Virus record (IMG/VR): IMGVR_UViG_3300022177_000001
Span: 1-52,363 of that record
DNA: 52,363 nucleotides
Reading direction: 5' to 3' (one strand)
DNA from: a virus
Taxonomy: Duplodnaviria; Caudoviricetes
Shown: positions 3,272 through 32,109 of the stretch, piece by piece
Layout: each line of letters opens with the position of its first letter
Numbering within the stretch: position 1 is the first letter of the stretch
Position numbers and translations under genes: made by a program
The notes under the pieces: generated by a model
The model's database searches: none
What the model was told of the DNA's origin: nothing
The model's input: the letters and a program-made list of their open reading frames with translations, nothing else

Positions 3272-6200
3272 TGCACGCCCCCTGTCTCAAGAAACTTGAG
3301 CATCCGCTTGTTCGTTTGCTTCGTGTCGGACGCATGAACAGCGGTACTGTACGTGTTGTCTCGAATCTCCTTCATGAGCGCCGTGTTCTGCCGCTTCAGG
3401 TCACGGACCTCGGCCACGAGTTCCGCATACCCGTCGCCGGAGTTTTTCCACGGGGCCGTGAGATCGACGGGAATTTTTCCGTTCTTGAGCGGGACGTGGG
3501 CCTCCGGCCCGGTTTCTGCGACGTAGGCGAGCTGTGGAGTCCAGGAAATGCCGCCCTCTGCAAAGCCAGGGATGTCAACTCCAAGTTTCGTCTCGACGCC
3601 CTTCAGTGCCGCATAAAAGTCCGCGAGTTTGGCGTCCAAAAGCATCGCGTACGATGCATCTTGAACCTTCCACGTGCTCATCGACTGGTATCTTGTGATT
3701 TCGTCCTTCAAGGTACTGACAAGGCTGTTCTTCTGCGATGTCGTCAGCCCGGACGCGCTCGCATCGGTGACCAGCTTTGAAATCGCGCTTGAGCGCGAAA
3801 GGATGGTGCTTACAACCTGCTCCGCCGTCTTTCCGGTATCCGTGACACCGCTCACTCCAGACGTTGGGATTTCCATCCCGGTCCACAGCGCCAGCTCTTT
3901 TTCCAGGGTCGCAATTTGCGAGGACAATCCCTGCGCGGTCTGCATGTGCGAGATGGCCGCCATGGGGACGCCCATGATCATGGCCATCATGGCCGAATTG
4001 TTGGCGCTCGACTGAGTGTCCTTCAGTGCCGAAATCTGGGCCGTCAGCGTCTCCACCTTTGTCTGACGCACCAAGTAAGCCTGGATGCCCTTAAAATATT
4101 CCTTCATGTCGCTTTGGACCTGGAGCTGCTTGTCGATCTTGTCTTGCAGCGACCGGGCTTCGCTTTGCCGCGACGTGATGGACGCCTGAATTTTCGCAAC
4201 AACGTCGTCGCGGTACGTGTCCATGGCCTCAATCAGCTTCGCCCAGTCTTCCTGTTGCGCCGTGCCGTCGATCTTGTCCTGCAGTGCATCAAGGAGCGCC
4301 TGGGAAATATCAATGGGCTTCCCGACGGCCAGCGAAACCTGATACAGGGAATCAATCTGCGCCTTTAAAATGCTGGCCTGAGCGGATGAAAGTTGGCTGA
4401 TATCCAGAGTATTCTTCGACAGCGCGGCCTTGAGTTGCGCCTCGGTGTCGATGCTCGCGCCCCGGATCGTCTTCAGGTCGGACCCAAGCAGTTTCTCCGT
4501 GATCTTTACCCGGGCCTCTTCCAAGAGCTTGCGCAGGGCCTCGGACGCGACCGGTGAACCCACGTTCAAAATGTCCTGGATGGCGCTCATTGCGCCCTTG
4601 ACGGCCCCGTCCAGAATGCCAAGCTGGGACTTCTGGATGACCGCCTGAAAGGCCGCAAAATCGGTCTTGCCCAGCTTGTAGTCGGTGACGGCCGTGCGGA
4701 GCGCCACGAGTTCTTCCCGCGCGCCCTTGACGCCCTGGCGGATCAACAGCAGTTGCTGATTCTCCAGGGTCGCTATCCACATCTGGACTTGATCTTGCTC
4801 AACCGCGTAGGCCTTCAGGGTCTCCAGTATCCCCGACAGGACGGCCCGTGCGCCCTTGGCGTTCGTGATAACGAGGTTGTATTGAGCCTTGTTGAGCTGC
4901 GTGATGATCGACGAGGCAACGTCATCCTCAAGCTTGTAGCCCGGGAGCGCGCTTTTGATTTTGTCGATAGCGGCGAGCGCGCCACTGACGTTCCCCTTCG
5001 AAAGGGCCGACTGTGCGGCCGACAAATCCGTTTCAAGCTTTGCCCTGACATCCTCGGGGAGGTCGTAGTCCGCCAGGGCCTTCTGGAGCGACGTAAGGGC
5101 CGCCACAGCCCCTGCGACGTTGGTCACGGAAAGTGCGTCCTGCATGGCGGAAAGCTTGCCCGTGAGGTCTGCCCGCACGGTCGCAGAGAGGTCGTACCCG
5201 GAAAGTGCGTCCCGGAGGCTCATGGACGCCAAGTAGGCGGCCACGGTCCCGGCATAGGTCAAGGCATCCTGGACGGCGGTAAACTCCTGGATCAGAGCGG
5301 ATTTCGTGCCCGCGTCCAGTTCAAGCTTCGATACGGCCAACAGAATTTCATCCAGGGCCTTCTGTGCCGCTGTGGCGTCGGTGACGACAAGCTCGCGCTG
5401 GATGCGCGCCATGTGCTCGAGAAGCGTTGCCTTCATGCTCGCGTCGATGGCATACGCGGCGATGGAGTCCCGCACCTCGGCAAGCTCTTCAAGCGCGGCC
5501 AGTGCCCCCTGCGTGGTCAGCGTGGCCTGCAAATCCGTGAGCTGCCCGATAAGCTGCGCCTGGATGGACGCCGGGAGTCCGAAAGAGCCGATGGCGGCCA
5601 GCAGGGTTTCGATTTCCTTTGCCGCCGCGTCCGTGCTGGTCACGACAAGGCTTTGCTCAAGGGCCGAAATCTTGGATACAAGGGATGATTGGGTGGCGGC
5701 GTCCAGGTCATAAGCGTCGAGGGAATCTCTCAGCACCGCCAGGGCCTCCAGCGCGGCCAGTGCCCCGCCCGAGACAAGGAGGTCTTGCACCCGCTGGAAT
5801 TCCAAGATGGCTTTGGTAGCCGTATTGGGATCGGCCTCATAGGCTGCGATGTCTTTGCGCAGGGATTCCAGTTCCCGCAAAACAGCTTGGTTGCCCGTTG
5901 CGGCAATCTTGTTCTGCGCTTCCTCGAAAAGCACCACCAACGCCGCATACGACTCTTCCCCGGCCACGTACCCTTCGATGGAGGTCTTGACCTTTTCAAG
6001 CACGTCCGTTGCGTTGGTGATGGTGTCCGAGATCAGCCCGTGCTGGAGGTTGGAGAATTTGACGTACATCTCCGCAAACGAGATGTCCCCGGCCGTGTAG
6101 GCGGCAAGGGCCTTTTCAAACCCGTCGAGGGCGCTCAACGCGGTCAGCGTGACCGTATCGACAATCTGGACTTGCGCGTTCTGGAAAGCCCTCGTCAGCC

Positions 6201-24766: not shown

Positions 24767-26374
24767 CTACCCCCCGAGGGTTATGAATCCTCGTTCCTCG
24801 TAAACGCTTGGCCCTGGCGCTCCGGCGTCGCCCACCATCGCCCCGTTCATGGCCATGGCCAGGGCCACGATGCCGTCGATGCGCCCCGTGCTCTTGATCT
24901 TGTCGAATTTGCGGTTCCCGGCCGGGTCGGTCTGGACGCGAACATTTGAGGCGCACATGGTCAGCACAGGATGGTTGCCGTGCGAAATCTTCCCCTCGGC
25001 AAGCGCGTCCTCAAGCGTCTCCACGGCCGGGTTCATGTCTTTGAAGCCCTGGCCATGCGGAATGAGCCGGATCGCGCCGTCAATCGGATCATCCTTGCCG
25101 TCGATCCAGACTTCCACGCCCTCTTCGGCCAAGGCGCGCTGCAAATCTTCGATGCGCCAGCGGTCGAAACGAAGGCCGCGCAAGGTGAATTGCGCGTGCA
25201 ACCGCCCGAGTTCTTGCGCCACGTAGCGGTAGTCGATGGTCTTGCCGGGAACGGAGGTCAGGTGGCCTTGTCTGGCCCACAAATCGTAAGGAACCTTGTC
25301 CTTGTCGGATCGGTCGCGGATGTTGTCGGCCGGGGTCCAGAAGAATGGCAGGATGTGCCACATGCCAGCGAGGTCGCGCGTCACGCATACCAGGGATGTC
25401 AGGTCGTTTTTCCCTGACAGGTCCAGCCCGGCATAAACCTGGAAGTCCTCGAAGGCGGACAAGTCCGGATGCGTCCCGTTGGCCCGCCACACATCCGGCG
25501 TGATGAAGTGCGCGGTCGCGTCGATGCGCTGATTCAGGTGCAGATTGCGGAACGCGGCTTCGGCCGAAGGCATCCGCCGGGCCTTGGTCGCCGTCTCGCG
25601 CATGGTCTTGAGCGAACAGAAATCGTCCAGGGCCGGGTTGCAGGCGAACCAAGTCTTTTCGTCCCACGGGTCGGCGTCTTTGGGCGCGGCGAACAGGCAG
25701 CACACCACCGTTGGGTCTTCGATTTCGCCGCTTTCGGCCTTCGTCCCGTAGTCGATGAGTTCCGACAGAAGCGCCTTGTCGTCCGGGGCCTGCGTGGAGA
25801 ACACGAACACCAGCGGTTCGGCGTGCGCGCCCCGGGAGGTCATGAGCGCGTCGTAAAGCGTCCGGTCACGGCCAAATTCGGCCAGTTCGTCAAAAAAGAT
25901 GACGGACGCGGACTTGCCCATCTTCCCCTTTTTCTCGCCGGAAAGGACTTGGTAGACGGACCCGGAAACGGGATCGATGATCTTCTTGCGGGACTCGACC
26001 ACATTCAGGCGCGCCGAAAGTTCTTCGTCGGCGTAGACCATGGCGGTCATGTATTTGAACAGGATTCCGGCCTGATCGGAGTCGATGGACAGGCTGTAAA
26101 GCTGGCCGTTGCGGATGGCTTCCGGGCCACACAGGTGCGCCAGTCCGAGCCCAGCCACCAAGGCGCTTTTCCCGTTCTTCCGGGGGATGGAAAACGTGGC
26201 TTCGCGGACCAGCCTCTTCCCGTCAGGCCCGACGGGCGCGTAGACGCGGCGGATGAACTTCTTTTGCCAGTCGCGCAACACAAGCGGTTGCCCTGCGTTC
26301 GCCCCGTCCGGGCACCGCAGGGTTTCCAGGAAGTCAATGACATCCTGGGCGCGCTTGTGGTTCATGTCAGCCAC
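24767..26374 (-). CDS. terL: Terminase large subunit
   Basis: PRKNGKS Walker A, FFDE Walker B, GLDLS nuclease motif, RIDG.VA. Confidence 0.97.
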   Translation of the reverse strand: MADMNHKRAQDVIDFLETLRCPDGANAGQPLVLRDWQKKFIRRVYAPVGPDGKRLVREATFSIPRKNGKSALVAGLGLAHLCGPEAIRNGQLYSLSIDSDQAGILFKYMTAMVYADEELSARLNVVESRKKIIDPVSGSVYQVLSGEKKGKMGKSASVIFFDELAEFGRDRTLYDALMTSRGAHAEPLVFVFSTQAPDDKALLSELIDYGTKAESGEIEDPTVVCCLFAAPKDADPWDEKTWFACNPALDDFCSLKTMRETATKARRMPSAEAAFRNLHLNQRIDATAHFITPDVWRANGTHPDLSAFEDFQVYAGLDLSGKNDLTSLVCVTRDLAGMWHILPFFWTPADNIRDRSDKDKVPYDLWARQGHLTSVPGKTIDYRYVAQELGRLHAQFTLRGLRFDRWRIEDLQRALAEEGVEVWIDGKDDPIDGAIRLIPHGQGFKDMNPAVETLEDALAEGKISHGNHPVLTMCASNVRVQTDPAGNRKFDKIKSTGRIDGIVALAMAMNGAMVGDAGAPGPSVYEERGFITLGG

Positions 26375-26804
26375 CGAACATCTTCCTTGCCGGGCGTTTC
26401 TCTATCTCCCCGGGCTCTTTGGCCGCCTGCTTGATCGAAACGCGGCTGTTGGCGCAGATGCGGAGCTTGGTGGCCAGGGCCGCCATGGTCGCGGCGGACT
26501 TCTCCATGATCTTGAACCAGGGGTTTTCGCGCGGGACCGGGCCGTTTTGCGTCATGACCACGATCACGGCTTCGTCGCCGTCGCACCGCTCACAGGCCAG
26601 GAAATGCTTCGCCTCGGCTTCGCAGTAGGCCCGCAAAAGCGGCAAATCTCCGGCCTTGAAGTGGTCCACGGCGTAGTCCTTGACGATGGAAAGCCAGCGG
26701 CCCCTGGCGCGCGGAGACATTCCGGCCGGAGGCCCTGGACGCTTCGCCGTCTTCGTGGCGACAACGGAGAGTTTCCCTGCCGGGGTCGGGCCGCGCTTAC
26801 CCAT
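26367..26804 (-). CDS. terS: Terminase small subunit (P27 family)
   Basis: GKRGP start, L..YC, ENPW, L.I...SR; overlaps the terL start. Confidence 0.9.
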   Translation of the reverse strand: MGKRGPTPAGKLSVVATKTAKRPGPPAGMSPRARGRWLSIVKDYAVDHFKAGDLPLLRAYCEAEAKHFLACERCDGDEAVIVVMTQNGPVPRENPWFKIMEKSAATMAALATKLRICANSRVSIKQAAKEPGEIEKRPARKMFGG

Positions 26805-27102
26805 GGGCCGCCTGCCTCCAGGGATGGTTCGGGGAAAGCGGGATGCCGTTCACGTCGCACCCCTTCACCAGAAATTCGTCTTCGGTCTGGTCGCGCTTCG
26901 AGTAGTTGCAATTCTCGCAAGCGGAACGGAGATTCGCCCGGTCAAAGAACTCCCCGCCCCGGGCAATCGGCGTGGCGTGGTCAACGGTCGTCGCCACGGT
27001 CACGCGCCCGGCTTGTTTGCAGTAGTGGCAAAGCGGGCTCTCGCGTAGGACGATGGCGCGAAGCTTTTTCCACTGCGCGGTGTGGTAGCGGGGATCGTCC
27101 AT
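26797..27102 (-). CDS. Terminase-associated HNH endonuclease (gp74-like)
   Basis: W..LR..VL...PLC..C, VDH..P...GG, NL...C..CN..K. Confidence 0.92.
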   Translation of the reverse strand: MDDPRYHTAQWKKLRAIVLRESPLCHYCKQAGRVTVATTVDHATPIARGGEFFDRANLRSACENCNYSKRDQTEDEFLVKGCDVNGIPLSPNHPWRQAAHG

Positions 27103-27225
27103 GCCTTTTCCTCTGTGCCGAAAAACAAAAAGCCGTGAATCTGGATGGTTCACGGCGGATGGTACAAGAGAAAAATAGAATGATGCTAGATAGTCGTTAC
27201 CATGCACGGTAACAAGTTCGCCCCA

Positions 27226-27253
27226 AAACAAAAGGGCGGCCAGAAGACCGCCC
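27226..27253 (-). terminator. Rho-independent terminator closing the TIGR operon
   Basis: Minus strand GGGCGGTC-TTCT-GGCCGCCC followed by TTTTGTTTT. Confidence 0.8.
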
Positions 27254-27283
27254 CTGTGATGGTGAAATGCTTGCGCGTGAGGG

Positions 27284-27910
27284 CTACTGTGCCATGGCCT
27301 CCCGTCGCGGGCAGTCCAGGTTGACCGGCACAAACGCCGCACTGTGGCCCTTGGTTTTCGCCAGCGCCGCCCGCAGGCGTTCGATGGTCTTGTCTTTTTC
27401 GGCCAATTCGGCGCGCAAAACCTGGATTTCCTCGGCGGCCTCGCGATACCTGGCCTCCCAATTGATGTACCGGATGACCTTTTTCGGCCTCGCGTGGGCG
27501 TCCAGAATCGCGTCCTTGACCTCGGAAGAAACCGGTGTGCTCCGCTTGTTTTCCTCGCGACGTAGGGCGTTGAAGATGATTGGGAGCTTGTCCTGGCCGC
27601 ACTGTTTGGCCGCCCGGGACACGAAGCCGATGCCGTATTTTTCGGCCTGATCGGGGAACTTGACGTAAAGCAACTTCGATTCCCGAAACTTGGTCATGGA
27701 GATGTCGAAGCACTCCCTGAGGTAGATGTCAAAATCGGCCTTGGCGTAGACCGGGTTTTCCTTGAACCGCCCGGTGTGCTCCAGATAGGCCAGGATGCCG
27801 ATGTACTTCCGGTGGGCGGTCAATTCGTCGGACTGGCAGGCCCGGATTGCGGCCTCAATGTCCGCAATGGGCTTGCTGTCGTACTTCGCTTTCAACTGAT
27901 TGATCTTCAT
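27284..27910 (-). CDS. Hypothetical protein, weakly DUF3102-like HTH plus C-terminal coiled coil (208 aa)
   Basis: AGGAGG RBS before MKINQ; F..YL.E.F.IS......LY..F pattern; co-oriented with tas. Confidence 0.7.
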   Translation of the reverse strand: MKINQLKAKYDSKPIADIEAAIRACQSDELTAHRKYIGILAYLEHTGRFKENPVYAKADFDIYLRECFDISMTKFRESKLLYVKFPDQAEKYGIGFVSRAAKQCGQDKLPIIFNALRREENKRSTPVSSEVKDAILDAHARPKKVIRYINWEARYREAAEEIQVLRAELAEKDKTIERLRAALAKTKGHSAAFVPVNLDCPRREAMAQ

Positions 27911-28037
27911 GGGGCCTCCTTTTCTCAAGCAAAAAGGCGATTGTTTCTCCGATGGTTTTGCCGAGCGTGGCGGAAAGTATTTTAATCTGCCTGTAAACCT
28001 CTGTATCTATAGGAAAGTTTACATTTTTCTTTGGCAT
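27855..28037 (-). CDS. Ribbon-helix-helix-like small DNA-binding protein
   Basis: KNVNFPIDTEVYRQIKILSATLGKTIGETIAFLL has a strand-helix-G-helix pattern; AAGGA RBS at the array end. Confidence 0.7.
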   Translation of the reverse strand: MPKKNVNFPIDTEVYRQIKILSATLGKTIGETIAFLLEKRRPHEDQSVESEVRQQAHCGH

Positions 28038-28050
28038 GGGCTTCCTTTAA

Positions 28051-28449
28051 GGGCGCATAGTCTTCATGGGCTTCAATGATCCTGTGGCTCGCACCATCCG
28101 ATTGGGTTTCACCGCCTTGGTGGCTCGCATGCTTAAAATGGGTTTCAAAGGCCCTCTGGCTCGCACGGCAGCGATGAGTTTCACGCTAGCAACGGCTCGC
28201 AGGCACGTAATGGGTTTCACAAGCACCCTGGCTCGCAACGCATCCCTGGGCTTCGCTGTGGTTTTCGACTCGCACCACCATAGTGGGTTTCCTGGTCTTC
28301 CTGGCTCGCATACTCCCAGTGGGGTTCAACGCATACTGGATCGCACGGCGACATTGGATTTCACACGTCCTTTGGCTCGCACGCCGCTTCTGGGTTTCAC
28401 TCAGACGCTTGGCTCGCAGTCTTCACCTGGGTTTCATGGTCATGGTGGC
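28051..28449 (-). ncRNA. TIGR-type dual-repeat guide array 2 (11 units of about 36 nt)
   Basis: Alternating TGCGAGCCA and TGAAACCCA repeats separated by unique spacers, mostly 9 nt (one 8 nt, two 10 nt). Confidence 0.93.
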
Positions 28450-28455
28450 AAAAAC

Positions 28456-29295
28456 TTACGCCGCCTTCTTCGCCTCGAAATAGAACGGCTCAACGATCCC
28501 GGTATGCCCCATGATCGTGCCCGCGTAGGGAGGCGTCACGGTCAACCCGTCCAGGGTCCGGGCCACGGCCCAGAAGTGGGCCAGGAACAGTTTCGCCGCC
28601 TCGTGCCGGGCGCGGTTCAGACGATGCCCCTTCTTGACCTCGGGTTGCAGCCGCTCAATGCGCGCCTTGCGCTCAAGCAGGAACGCGCCGTAGGGGGTCT
28701 TGGTGGTCTGGCGGTTGAACTGGTCCCCGATGAGGTAGCAGGTGGCGCGGCCAACGCTTGACCAGTTTTGCCGCTTGCCCTTCTCGCGGCGCGGCTTCTT
28801 TCCGTCCAGGACGGCCATGCCCATGAAGGCCCACCACTTGGAGATGTTCGGGAAATCCCGAAGCTCGATCCGGTGCTTGGTCACACCGTCGCCCTTGACG
28901 GACTTCTCGCACGCCGGGCACCAGAAAGTGCCGTCCTTCTTTTCGAGGACCGCCCCGCATGTGCAAACAGGCGTAAACCTGTAGTAGTACAACATGATGA
29001 GCCGCCCCGCGATGGCCGGGCCGATGCCGGGAACGTGCCGCATCCAATCCGTGTAGATCGGCCACGCCAGCAAATCCTTCTCGATGGCCCGGGACAGCCG
29101 GGACTTGATCTGCTCAAGCCCGGAGGATTGCTTGGTACCGTTCAAGAACGGGTCATGTTTCGGATCGGCGTCCGGGTTCAGGGCGTGAAGGCGGTTTTTC
29201 ATGCCCGTGATGACTTTGTTCAGGGCGTCATAGTCGCGGATCGACTTGTTCAGCCGCTGAATCGCCAGTTCGCGTTCCGGGGTGTCGGGCTTCAT
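28456..29295 (-). CDS. tasA: TasA-like Nop-domain RNA-guided DNA-binding protein with Zn-ribbon insertion (279 aa)
   Basis: Coiled coil, VPGIGP..A..LI, F.NISK.WAF.G, and GH..NRA.....KLFL.HFW. No N-terminal DEDD RuvC domain. AGGAGG RBS before MKPDT. Flanked by 36-nt arrays. Confidence 0.85.
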   Translation of the reverse strand: MKPDTPERELAIQRLNKSIRDYDALNKVITGMKNRLHALNPDADPKHDPFLNGTKQSSGLEQIKSRLSRAIEKDLLAWPIYTDWMRHVPGIGPAIAGRLIMLYYYRFTPVCTCGAVLEKKDGTFWCPACEKSVKGDGVTKHRIELRDFPNISKWWAFMGMAVLDGKKPRREKGKRQNWSSVGRATCYLIGDQFNRQTTKTPYGAFLLERKARIERLQPEVKKGHRLNRARHEAAKLFLAHFWAVARTLDGLTVTPPYAGTIMGHTGIVEPFYFEAKKAA

Positions 29296-29310
29296 TGGTC
29301 CTCCTGGGTT

Positions 29311-29640
29311 TGGGGTCGCACAAGGACAAGGGGTTTCATGCCCGGCATGGCTCGCATAGTGGTTACGGGGTTCAAGGTCGGGTTGACTCGCACTGGCGGT
29401 CTGGGTTTCACGCAAAAGCTGGCTCACACGACGGGCCTGTGGTCAAAGGAAACCGTGGCGCATATAGGGGCTGGACTTCATCGTAACCTTGGCTTGCATT
29501 GTCTTCCTGGGGTTCAACGCGCCTTTGGCTCGCACCATCCCTTCGGGTTTCAGTCTCCACATGACTCGCACCCCGCTACTGGGTTTCACCCTCCACTTGG
29601 CTCGCACGACATGGATGGGTTTCATGCCTCTCCGGGCAAC
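29311..29640 (-). ncRNA. TIGR-type dual-repeat guide array 1 (9 units, one degenerate)
   Basis: Same two 9-nt repeats with 9-nt unique spacers and 36-nt period. Confidence 0.92.
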
Positions 29641-29647
29641 CGATGAA

Positions 29648-29676
29648 ATAATACTTTCAGCAAAAATCCATGTCAA
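29648..29676 (-). promoter_or_regulatory. Sigma70 promoter of the TIGR-Tas operon
   Basis: TTGACA, 17 bp, TATTAT; the predicted start near 29641 falls at the first partial repeat. Confidence 0.85.
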
Positions 29677-29719
29677 GCACGGGTTGCGGTTTTTTGCAAA
29701 AAGATTTATTCCTGCCGCC

Positions 29720-29980
29720 ATGCCCACAGACAACAAAATCCTTGCCTCTGAAGAAGAAAAATTTCAGGTGTGGTGCGTGAAAAGCCGGATAGATGAATTT
29801 GCCCGCATGAGAGGGCTTCGCATGGATGAACTGGCCGAAGCGTCTGGCCTGTCCGTCGTGACAATTCGGAAAGCTCGCCGGGACGGCCCGGATGGAATCG
29901 ACACGTTGACGCTCAAGAATCTTCAAAAAATCGCCCGCGCCCTTGACCTTCGCCCAAAAGACCTCTTCTTTGACGACTAA
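29720..29980 (+). CDS. XRE-family HTH regulator
   Basis: RGLRMDELAEASGLSVVTIRK...TLKNLQKIARALD...DLF. Confidence 0.9.
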   Translation: MPTDNKILASEEEKFQVWCVKSRIDEFARMRGLRMDELAEASGLSVVTIRKARRDGPDGIDTLTLKNLQKIARALDLRPKDLFFDD

Positions 29981-30204
29981 ACCCGCGCCTCCATCCCCGC
30001 CCCGCGCCCGGCGTCCATGGCTGGAACGTCAAATTCGATGCTCCGGAAGTTACGACCGCAGTTTGGGCACTTGTGGTAGCGGAACCGCGTCGCGCCGTCC
30101 CATTTTCTGACCTTGTAAGCCGGGACAGAAGTCGCCCCGCACCCAGGGCACCGCGCCCCACTCTTCGGACTGTAGGTGACGCCGTAGTCTCCGGAATCAG
30201 GCAT
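29977..30204 (-). CDS. Ogr/Delta-like zinc-finger protein
   Basis: CPGCG...RYHKCPNCG..F.SIE. Confidence 0.6.
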   Translation of the reverse strand: MPDSGDYGVTYSPKSGARCPGCGATSVPAYKVRKWDGATRFRYHKCPNCGRNFRSIEFDVPAMDAGRGAGMEARV

Positions 30205-30748
30205 TCCGCTCCCCCCTAATCTCTTCCCGCCGCTTTTCGGCCAGGATCATCCGGCGGCGCGTGTTGCGGTTCGTGTTGGGGCGGTGGAAAGTAGGGCGAA
30301 GACGGGATGCGCGCACAGCCTCGGCCATCGCTTTTCTCAAGTCTCGGAGCCTTGAGGACACTTCTTCGCGAATCGTCCCCTTCATCGGCTCAAAATCACG
30401 CATGAATTTGTTTCTGTGCCGCTTTTCGTCGGCCTCCCGGGCGAAGTTGCGCATCCAGAGGGGGGTAAGGACGCCCCCGGCGAGGAACAGGGAGGAGCGG
30501 GGTATCGGGGCACCAGCCAGTTCGTCGAGGCGCAAAATTTTCTCCCACGTCTCCTTGCTCACAAGGCCGCCCGTGGCAAAGCCGTGAGGGTTGCCGCTGG
30601 CGCAAACCGCCGCCCTGTCATCGCCTTGAGCATGGTCAACGCCCATTACGCGGGCCAAATCGTCGGCCTTGGCATCCGCTTGGCGCAACCCGGTTTCGAT
30701 CTCCTGGCCGTCCACGAAAACTTTTCCATCCGCTATGATATTGGGCAT
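30197..30748 (-). CDS. Hypothetical phage protein
   Basis: Coupled ORF in the minus-strand operon. Confidence 0.6.
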   Translation of the reverse strand: MPNIIADGKVFVDGQEIETGLRQADAKADDLARVMGVDHAQGDDRAAVCASGNPHGFATGGLVSKETWEKILRLDELAGAPIPRSSLFLAGGVLTPLWMRNFAREADEKRHRNKFMRDFEPMKGTIREEVSSRLRDLRKAMAEAVRASRLRPTFHRPNTNRNTRRRMILAEKRREEIRGERNA

Positions 30749-31722: not shown

Positions 31723-32109
31723 TCAGCCCCCGGCCGCCTTCACGGCCATGTGTGCGGCCACGGATGACCAGACGGTGTTGCCGATCATGGTGATGGTCGC
31801 CGCCGCAATGACCCACCCGAATTTGACCAGAAAGCCCACAATGACCTCCAGCCGGGTCAGCCGGGCGTCGTTGTCGGCGGCCGACTTCCGCGAGTCTTTG
31901 AGGTCGCGTATCTCGCGGTCCCGGGCGACGTTCGCGGCCTCTTCGGACGCACACCGCTTGTCCCGATCCGACTGCTTGGCCTCGATGCGCGCCACGGCGG
32001 CGGCCGTGTCCTTGCGCACCCCCTCGATGGCGGCCAAAATGCGCGCCTCCATGGCCGTCATCTTGTCTTCCAAGCGCCTGACCTCAGTTTGCAGTTGTTC
32101 CGGCGGCAT
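31723..32109 (-). CDS. Coiled-coil protein with C-terminal membrane anchor (lysis-cassette associated)
   Basis: MPPEQ start, heptad pattern, terminal hydrophobic segment. Confidence 0.65.
   Translation of the reverse strand: MPPEQLQTEVRRLEDKMTAMEARILAAIEGVRKDTAAAVARIEAKQSDRDKRCASEEAANVARDREIRDLKDSRKSAADNDARLTRLEVIVGFLVKFGWVIAAATITMIGNTVWSSVAAHMAVKAAGG

Follow-up and report, generated by a model that had tools for sequence, protein, structure and literature searches.

What can a Tas protein do when it carries no nuclease domain, and what might a four-cysteine insert in its Nop domain add to it? These questions are raised by tasA, a gene of IMG/VR virus record IMGVR_UViG_3300022177_000001 (Duplodnaviria; Caudoviricetes), whose 52,363 bases, 67% complete by CheckV, are the window analyzed here. 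Programmable DNA binders of very small size are being developed from TIGR-Tas effectors, and what the nuclease-less TasA proteins do in nature is debated. We find that the tasA product is a nuclease-less Tas protein, of the TasA subtype, that belongs to a dual-repeat TIGR system, and that its Cys4 insert marks out a large clade of phage dual-repeat TasA proteins, to which a partner gene (p208) is exclusive. On balance, and without strong conviction, we lean toward reading this locus as a phage-borne dual-repeat TIGR-TasA effector in which the insert, a putative zinc ribbon, would serve as a brace or as a contact to nucleic acid. Coordinates are collected in Table 1.

A Tas protein without a nuclease domain, and its arrays

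In a phmmer search of PDB chains, the tasA product found TaTasR (9mty) with E 3.5e-29 and, more weakly, the TasH chains with E 1.5e-7. An AlphaFold2 model built from 80 homologues, with a mean predicted local distance difference test score (pLDDT) of 91.2, was matched by Foldseek to 9mty_A (E 1.8e-11, TMq 0.60) and also to TasH entries including 9w04, with weaker matches to IS621 (8wt9, E 2.2e-3) and ISCro4 (9t56, E 1.6e-3). The NCBIfam model NF052498 (TIGR_Tas_endo, "TIGR-Tas system RNA-guided endonuclease") matched at E 1.4e-27, in two stretches split by the insert. PHROG 4285 matches at E 1.5e-20, and its name, "transposase", is a label only; PADLOC gave no matches.

The coiled coil of the AlphaFold2 model begins at residue 6, five residues into the chain, and therefore no RuvC or HNH domain can precede it; the alignment to TaTasR likewise starts within the TaTasR coiled coil. 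Pfam gave nothing at E<=1 except zf-UDP at E 0.19, which is noise, and thus no RuvC, HNH, or IS110 model. An earlier note on this DNA had called the protein a nuclease-less Tas with neither an N-terminal DEDD RuvC domain nor an HNH motif, and both parts of that description hold: phmmer, Foldseek, and NCBIfam place the protein in Tas, and the chain opens at the coiled coil. At its other end the chain stops 9 residues past the loop that holds Y257 and H264, which leaves no space for the C-terminal serine domain of IS110. Identity as an IS110 transposase was considered and rejected on the grounds that there is no N-terminal DEDD RuvC, no room for the serine domain, and no Pfam IS110 match at E<=1. 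The ATG of tasA is preceded by AGGAGG, and P0005, the closest homologue among the matches listed, begins at the same Met. A longer reading from a GTG at 29427 was rejected because it would cross array repeats and because P0005 shares the ATG Met.

TasA keeps the coiled coil, the wedge (a segment we define as in the available part of preprint 10.64898/2026.09.09.750476), the region of the aromatic/basic pair, and the Tyr/His pair. Y257 and H264 are invariant in 80/80 rows of our homologue alignment A1, and their SpTasH equivalents are, in the available part of PMC13421893, the residues reported to cut pre-tigRNA. With these parts of the Tas machine kept, the published binding mode is the default expectation, namely that a Tas dimer binds one guide whose spacers A and B pair with opposite strands of an 18-bp site (available part of PMC12045711).

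The arrays on either side of tasA both have a 36-nucleotide (nt) period. On the minus strand each unit contains two 9-nt repeats, the edge repeat UGCGAGCCA and then the loop repeat UGAAACCCA, with one spacer after each. Both repeats have UG at the start and CCA at the end on the tas strand, matching box D and box C as described for TaTasR guides, and the edge repeats are truncated at the array ends, as they are in the published arrays (for both, the available part of PMC12045711). In the downstream array, spacer A is 10, 8, and 10 nt long in units 2, 4, and 6, every spacer B is 9 nt, and repeat degeneracy is greatest in the middle units.

Two viral contigs (L013, positions 3300-5400, and L014, positions 815-1400) encode a TasA that is 95% identical, at ~90% nucleotide identity, beside spacers that are almost all different. 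One unit is recognizably shared in these arrays (3/18 differences), together with the degenerate 34-nt unit, and the other best spacer matches show 8-11 differences, equal to shuffled controls. Spacer replacement is much faster than drift of the tas gene.

A Cys4 insert that marks one clade, and its partner gene

The phmmer alignment pairs TasA residues 65-102 with TaTasR 155-192 and TasA residues 147-273 with TaTasR 198-321, and therefore ~44 residues of TasA replace a 5-residue linker of TaTasR. The insert is placed between the VPGIG helix-hairpin-helix and the FPNISK(WW) helix, upstream of the wedge loop and separate from it. The pattern is CxC-12-CxxC, and C111, C113, C126, and C129 are invariant in 120/120 homologues listed and in 80/80 rows of A1, which is far beyond chance. 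When distinct ribbon-clade loci that cover the site are counted, 46/47 have all four cysteines, and the 47th reads CxxC...CxxH.

The AlphaFold2 model of the insert has strands at 105-110, 118-120, 123-126, and 140-145 and no helix, with the CxC knuckle after the first strand and the CxxC knuckle after the third, which is the layout of a zinc ribbon; on motif and modeled fold, we infer that it binds zinc. Behind the second knuckle is a conserved K-x-x-K-G-D/E-G loop, and the segment from C129 to D147 is 17 residues long in 64/80 rows and 16 in 15/80. The hairpin tip ranges in length from 8 to 22 residues (80 rows), and some representatives have a much longer one, >40. K119, K131, and K134 are each the most frequent residue at their position in at least 94 of the 120 homologues listed, and position 141 is H in 50/120 of them and Y in 57/120.

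A HMMER scan of 1.84 billion 50%-identity representatives returned 1302 proteins at E<=1e-3, of which 61 reach E<=1e-30, and from these 1302 Tas representatives the best 150 plus the query were examined row by row. The insert site is spanned by 94 of these rows, 61 of which have all four cysteines; at greater distance, the 29 representatives in which both flanking motifs were found have a linker of exactly 16 residues. The earlier note had described a C4 zinc ribbon inserted in the Nop domain between VPGIG and FPNISK and had proposed a survey among Tas homologues. The alignment bears out the insertion, coordinates included, and the survey points to a trait of one clade that makes up ~60 of the 1302 Tas representatives, roughly a twentieth, a fraction that leans on the E-value break because the best 150 rows were the ones seen; other Tas proteins have 16 residues there.

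No ribbon-clade member has an N-terminal extension longer than ~69 residues, so all are TasA-type. Arrays are present in 8/8 ribbon-clade loci from genomes. Genes of the clade are found on 54 IMG/VR viral contigs and also on contigs of metagenome-assembled genomes labeled Desulfobacula, Desulfobacterales, Smithella, Deltaproteobacteria, and a Methanoperedens bin. Among the isolated phages of INPHARED there is no member of the clade, the matches there being distant (4 records, two SpTasH records at 25% identity). The clade is almost certainly already within the 20,096 published tas loci. The NCBI Tas model scores its members just below the cut-off because the insert breaks up the match, and routine annotation would probably leave them "hypothetical".

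Beside tasA in its operon is a gene for a 208-residue all-helical protein, p208. By a family profile, a p208 homologue lies beside tas in 44/51 distinct ribbon-clade loci versus 0/42 distinct other Tas loci (Fisher p 1.6e-19, a value that overstates independence because the loci are kin). It is on the tas strand in every locus with a tblastn match and is mostly downstream of tas. Seven ribbon-clade loci are without p208: two are cut off just after tas, and five, with 3-4 kb of flank, pass directly into other phage genes and keep the cysteines. This clade-specific gene accompanying the ribbon-type tasA is what is new here.

The AlphaFold2 model of p208 is all-helical (pLDDT 90.8) with a long C-terminal helix, and its fold matches are weak. 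DnaA domain IV came up at Z 5.8 in a structure search, no Foldseek match reached E<=0.001, and comparison with ParB helix-turn-helix domains by VIA-align gave 6s6h_B at Z 5.4 (root-mean-square deviation 8.2, 113 aligned) and 1vz0_A at Z 4.8 (3.1, 87 aligned), which is within the noise for helical models. Pfam ParB_N, HTH_ParB, and DUF3102 found nothing at E<=10 in p208, the first two having no match anywhere in the window, and hhalign of the p208 alignment (A2) against 4 chromosomal ParBs gave a probability of 0.2%. An Atlas lead named DUF3102/Plasmid_parti_N at 0.91, for which the Pfam DUF3102 search just mentioned is negative. The family profile against PDB sequences, like Pfam scans of 40 members, found coiled-coil matches only, and a large protein search found 8 unnamed relatives. 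The p208 protein may be the published "TasParB", with the ParB tests negative or weak.

What the ribbon may do

The TasA homodimer was predicted with ESMFold2 at an ipSAE of 0.77 (median of three runs), versus 0.00 for the best of 3 controls; at least 97% of contacts are shared between the runs, and the partner pLDDT is at least 80. Among solved proteins, the mark used for such dimers is reached by 20/30 homo-pairs and 1/23 single chains. The predicted interface consists of an antiparallel coiled coil together with ribbon residues 137-140, which belong to the invariant-glycine loop. TasA is thus predicted to dimerize through its coiled coil, with the caveat that solved TasR and TasH dimers exist and the pass may come from likeness to them.

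In the reading that we favor, TasA would form this dimer, use its conserved Tyr/His pair to cut 36-nt guides for itself, and bind an 18-bp DNA target with two 9-nt spacers, one for each strand; having no nuclease domain, it would block or repress the target and not cleave it. The ribbon would be a rigid, zinc-held module that grows from the helix-hairpin-helix at the place where PlTasA has its "hairpin B" near box D. Its K-x-x-K-G-D/E-G loop would lean on the coiled coil of the other protomer, and its basic face would contact the guide repeat, the heteroduplex, or flanking DNA. In this way the ribbon would make up for the missing nuclease domain by supplying some of the grip that TasR owes to RuvC.

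Three observations lead to this brace or contact role: the predicted dimer contact at 137-140, the site of hairpin B, and the contact of RuvC with box D in TasR. PlTasA, which binds DNA as a dimer and whose structure has been described (preprint 10.64898/2026.08.11.744272), has in hairpin B 12 residues (198-209) that are described as adjoining the box D motifs, with zinc unmentioned; counted as a residue offset from the aromatic residue of alpha4, hairpin B would occupy the site of the ribbon. In the stem-loop TasR the RuvC domain also touches box D (available part of 10.64898/2026.09.09.750476). The suggestion that the protein binds rather than cuts fits published work on TasA of other clades, for which repression is already on record. 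In stem-loop systems, TasA proteins are repressors of transcription that bind DNA and do not cut it (10.64898/2026.08.11.744272 and the available part of 10.64898/2026.09.09.750476), and for MbTasA the available part of the latter preprint describes reporter repression and electrophoretic mobility shift assays.

Several points weigh against this reading. Zinc binding is read from motif and fold alone. The net charge of the ribbon is modest (median +2, range -3 to +7), and its position relative to RNA and DNA comes from a sequence offset to the published description of PlTasA. The NF052498 score is 97.1 bits, just below the 100-bit cut-off, because the ribbon splits the match. When 20 spacer pairs were searched against the 52-kb contig in two opposite-strand geometries and two same-strand controls, there was no target at <=2 mismatches in a valid geometry, the best match (16/18, at 32063-32080) being same-strand and thus of invalid geometry. 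A search of 986 kb of related loci with the two opposite-strand geometries gave one 2-mismatch match, which is chance level. Contigs from RNA libraries, described below, cannot prove transcription or reveal 36-nt guides. Finally, the ribbon and p208 are both traits of the clade, which leaves room for a role in docking.

That role is an alternative that we regard as unlikely but worth setting out. The ribbon would be the docking site for p208, with the RNA-guided TasA dimer recruiting a dimeric helix-turn-helix or coiled-coil protein for silencing, bridging, partition, or exclusion. It would account for a partner gene in the same operon and for its presence at 44/51 ribbon-clade tas genes versus 0/42 others, a comparison of kin loci and hence no independent test, and it has a precedent in the TasA-TasParB operons and the modeled 2+2 complex of Faure et al. 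2025 (available part). Against it, the five flanked loci that have no p208 nearby, at 36 to 60% identity to the query, retain the cysteines in every case and the K..KG(D/E)G loop in three; the hairpin tip, moreover, tolerates from 8 to >40 residues. Relatives of three Tas proteins that have other zinc-type motifs at the insert site (P0259, P0221, and P0190) were sought in three viral scans, as an independent test of the link between ribbon and partner, and none were found.

A bolder form of the same idea, which we hold to be improbable, is that ribbon-TasA and p208 make up a distinct three-part TIGR subtype, in which the ribbon is an adaptor that links RNA-guided recognition to a second dimeric DNA-binding protein. 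If this were true, phage guides would bridge, silence, or partition DNA and would do more than occupy a site. More generally, zinc ribbons would then be the recurrent route by which Tas proteins gain new contacts at their loops.

We give still less credence to the ribbon being a plug that stabilizes the fold, makes no specific contact, might for instance confer stability under the conditions of the host, and was fixed early in the clade and merely kept. Zinc ribbons or motifs recur at several loops of other Tas lineages, which suggests loops that accept them readily, but behind the second knuckle both the length and the K..KGDG loop show tight conservation here, and that loop is predicted by the ESMFold2 dimer to touch the other protomer. 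Other zinc-type motifs at the insert site, after the helix-hairpin-helix (C2H2-like or H/C...CxC), were seen in P0190, P0193, P0214, P0221, and P0259. In L009, L087, P0155, and P0172 a Cys4 ribbon occupies the wedge loop, in L012 and L076 one precedes the terminal helix, and two ribbon-clade proteins have a second ribbon in the wedge.

Hardly credible is a decayed HNH or other nuclease remnant with which the protein still nicks or cuts DNA, a degenerate HNH having been named beforehand as an outcome that would count against a binding-only protein: some HNH domains do have Cys4 knuckles, and TasH carries an HNH domain, though an N-terminal one at another place in the chain, but residues 103-146 form four strands and no helix and hence no beta-beta-alpha-metal fold, the 120 homologues listed have no invariant His, Asn, or Asp in the insert except the border residue D147, and Pfam gives no HNH match at E<=1, and therefore this explanation fails.

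The ribbon and p208 together offer a handle on how guide and target are gripped when there is no nuclease domain, and on whether TasA works with accessory proteins.

The operon and its surroundings

Table 1. Features of the TIGR-TasA locus (positions in the window)
Feature	Position	Strand	Description
Sigma-70-like promoter TTGACA-17-TATTAT	29648..29676	(-)	11/12 matches
Upstream TIGR array (array 1)	29312..29642	(-)	~9 units and a further, degenerate one of 34 nt; the tasA ATG lies 17 nt past the array end
tasA, 279 residues	28456..29295	(-)	coiled coil at ~residues 6-75, then Nop domain
Cys4 zinc-ribbon insert (putative), residues 103-146 (C111, C113, C126, C129)	28858..28989	(-)	gap versus TaTasR; invariant cysteines
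Wedge loop, residues 159-179	28759..28821	(-)	21 residues, equal to TaTasR G210-K230
Y257...H264, equivalent of guide-processing pair	28504..28527	(-)	aligned to SpTasH Y289/H296
Downstream TIGR array (array 2)	28049..28455	(-)	11 units
p208, 208-residue all-helical partner gene	27284..27910	(-)	helical, helix-turn-helix-like body plus long C-terminal helix
Intrinsic terminator closing the operon	27232..27255	(-)	10-bp stem, 7 GC pairs, then T run

The features of Table 1 are best explained as one operon that runs from the promoter through array 1, tasA, array 2, and the 208-residue gene to the terminator. The promoter is the only promoter-like site found within 26700-30100. For the stretch 26300-30700, contigs that match the operon without a difference are present in four metatranscriptome libraries of a mixed culture, and the entire stretch is contained in two DNA runs; the phage is thus present in that culture, and probably active there. 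Contigs from all 4 libraries cover the operon, and in the best run two contigs span 27251-29634. The upstream RNA-library contigs stop at 29625-29643 in all 4 runs, and one contig ends at 27251. These ends, near the promoter and the terminator, are a weak hint of transcript ends, weak because such libraries may contain DNA and the data are contigs. A lack of RNA-contig cover elsewhere in the window does not show silence.

Neighbors of the TIGR locus include terminase, HNH, and XRE genes. The gene for an XRE/Cro-type helix-turn-helix protein (29720-29980, plus strand; Pfam HTH_26, E 1.2e-8) is divergent from the TIGR promoter region, and a relative with 51% identity is in the same position in L013. 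A 60-residue open reading frame resembling ribbon-helix-helix proteins (27855-28037, minus strand) follows directly on array 2 and shares 56 nt with the start of the 208-residue gene. A 127-nt stretch that is missing from the 95%-identical relatives contains its first ~38 codons, and the frame has no family match. As a component of the system it was rejected, since it is not conserved even in those relatives.

Comparison with known systems

No mention of zinc was found in the main texts of the Science paper, three 2026 TIGR-Tas preprints, and the Nucleic Acids Research TasH paper, supplements not included, and within the same limits a literature search for TIGR-Tas or tigRNA together with zinc returned reviews and unrelated papers and no primary TIGR-Tas study. 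To that extent the expectation that the insertion had not been characterized is upheld. The 2026 survey divides the Nop core into tip, wedge, insertion 1, and insertion 2 and describes dual-repeat Tas as a "compact core with minimal variation"; the ribbon falls in its "CTD1" segment, outside the named insertions. An insert common to the described TasA proteins, which would have spoken against a distinctive ribbon, is not what is seen in PlTasA, going by its published text.

The closest solved relative by sequence is TaTasR (9mty; Faure et al. 2025, PMC12045711, available part). It has in common with TasA the coiled coil and Nop fold, the 21-residue wedge, and a guide unit of 9+9+9+9 with UG...CCA repeats, and it differs in having an N-terminal RuvC nuclease and 5 residues where TasA has the 44-residue ribbon. 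SpTasH (9w03/9w04) shares the Nop domain and the Y289/H296 pair, here Y257/H264, and differs in its N-terminal HNH nuclease, its 8-nt spacers, and its lack of a ribbon. Like the protein described here, FpTasA of a dual-repeat system and PlTasA, MbTasA, and BlTasA of stem-loop systems are nuclease-less Tas proteins.

The TasA-TasParB operons, as given in the available part of Faure et al. 2025, likewise consist of tasA and one conserved accessory gene, with dual-repeat arrays upstream, downstream, and between both genes, as here. TasParB is predicted in that source to dimerize through its C-terminal part, and a 2+2 complex is modeled. These operons differ from ours in that the repeats are 10 nt in the paper versus 9 nt here, and p208 shows no ParB signal in the tests above. 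More distant relatives by fold, for the RNA-binding domain, are the IS110/IS621 bridge-RNA recombinases and archaeal Nop5. From the former, tasA differs in having neither the DEDD RuvC nor the C-terminal serine domain and in lying beside arrays and not at transposon ends.

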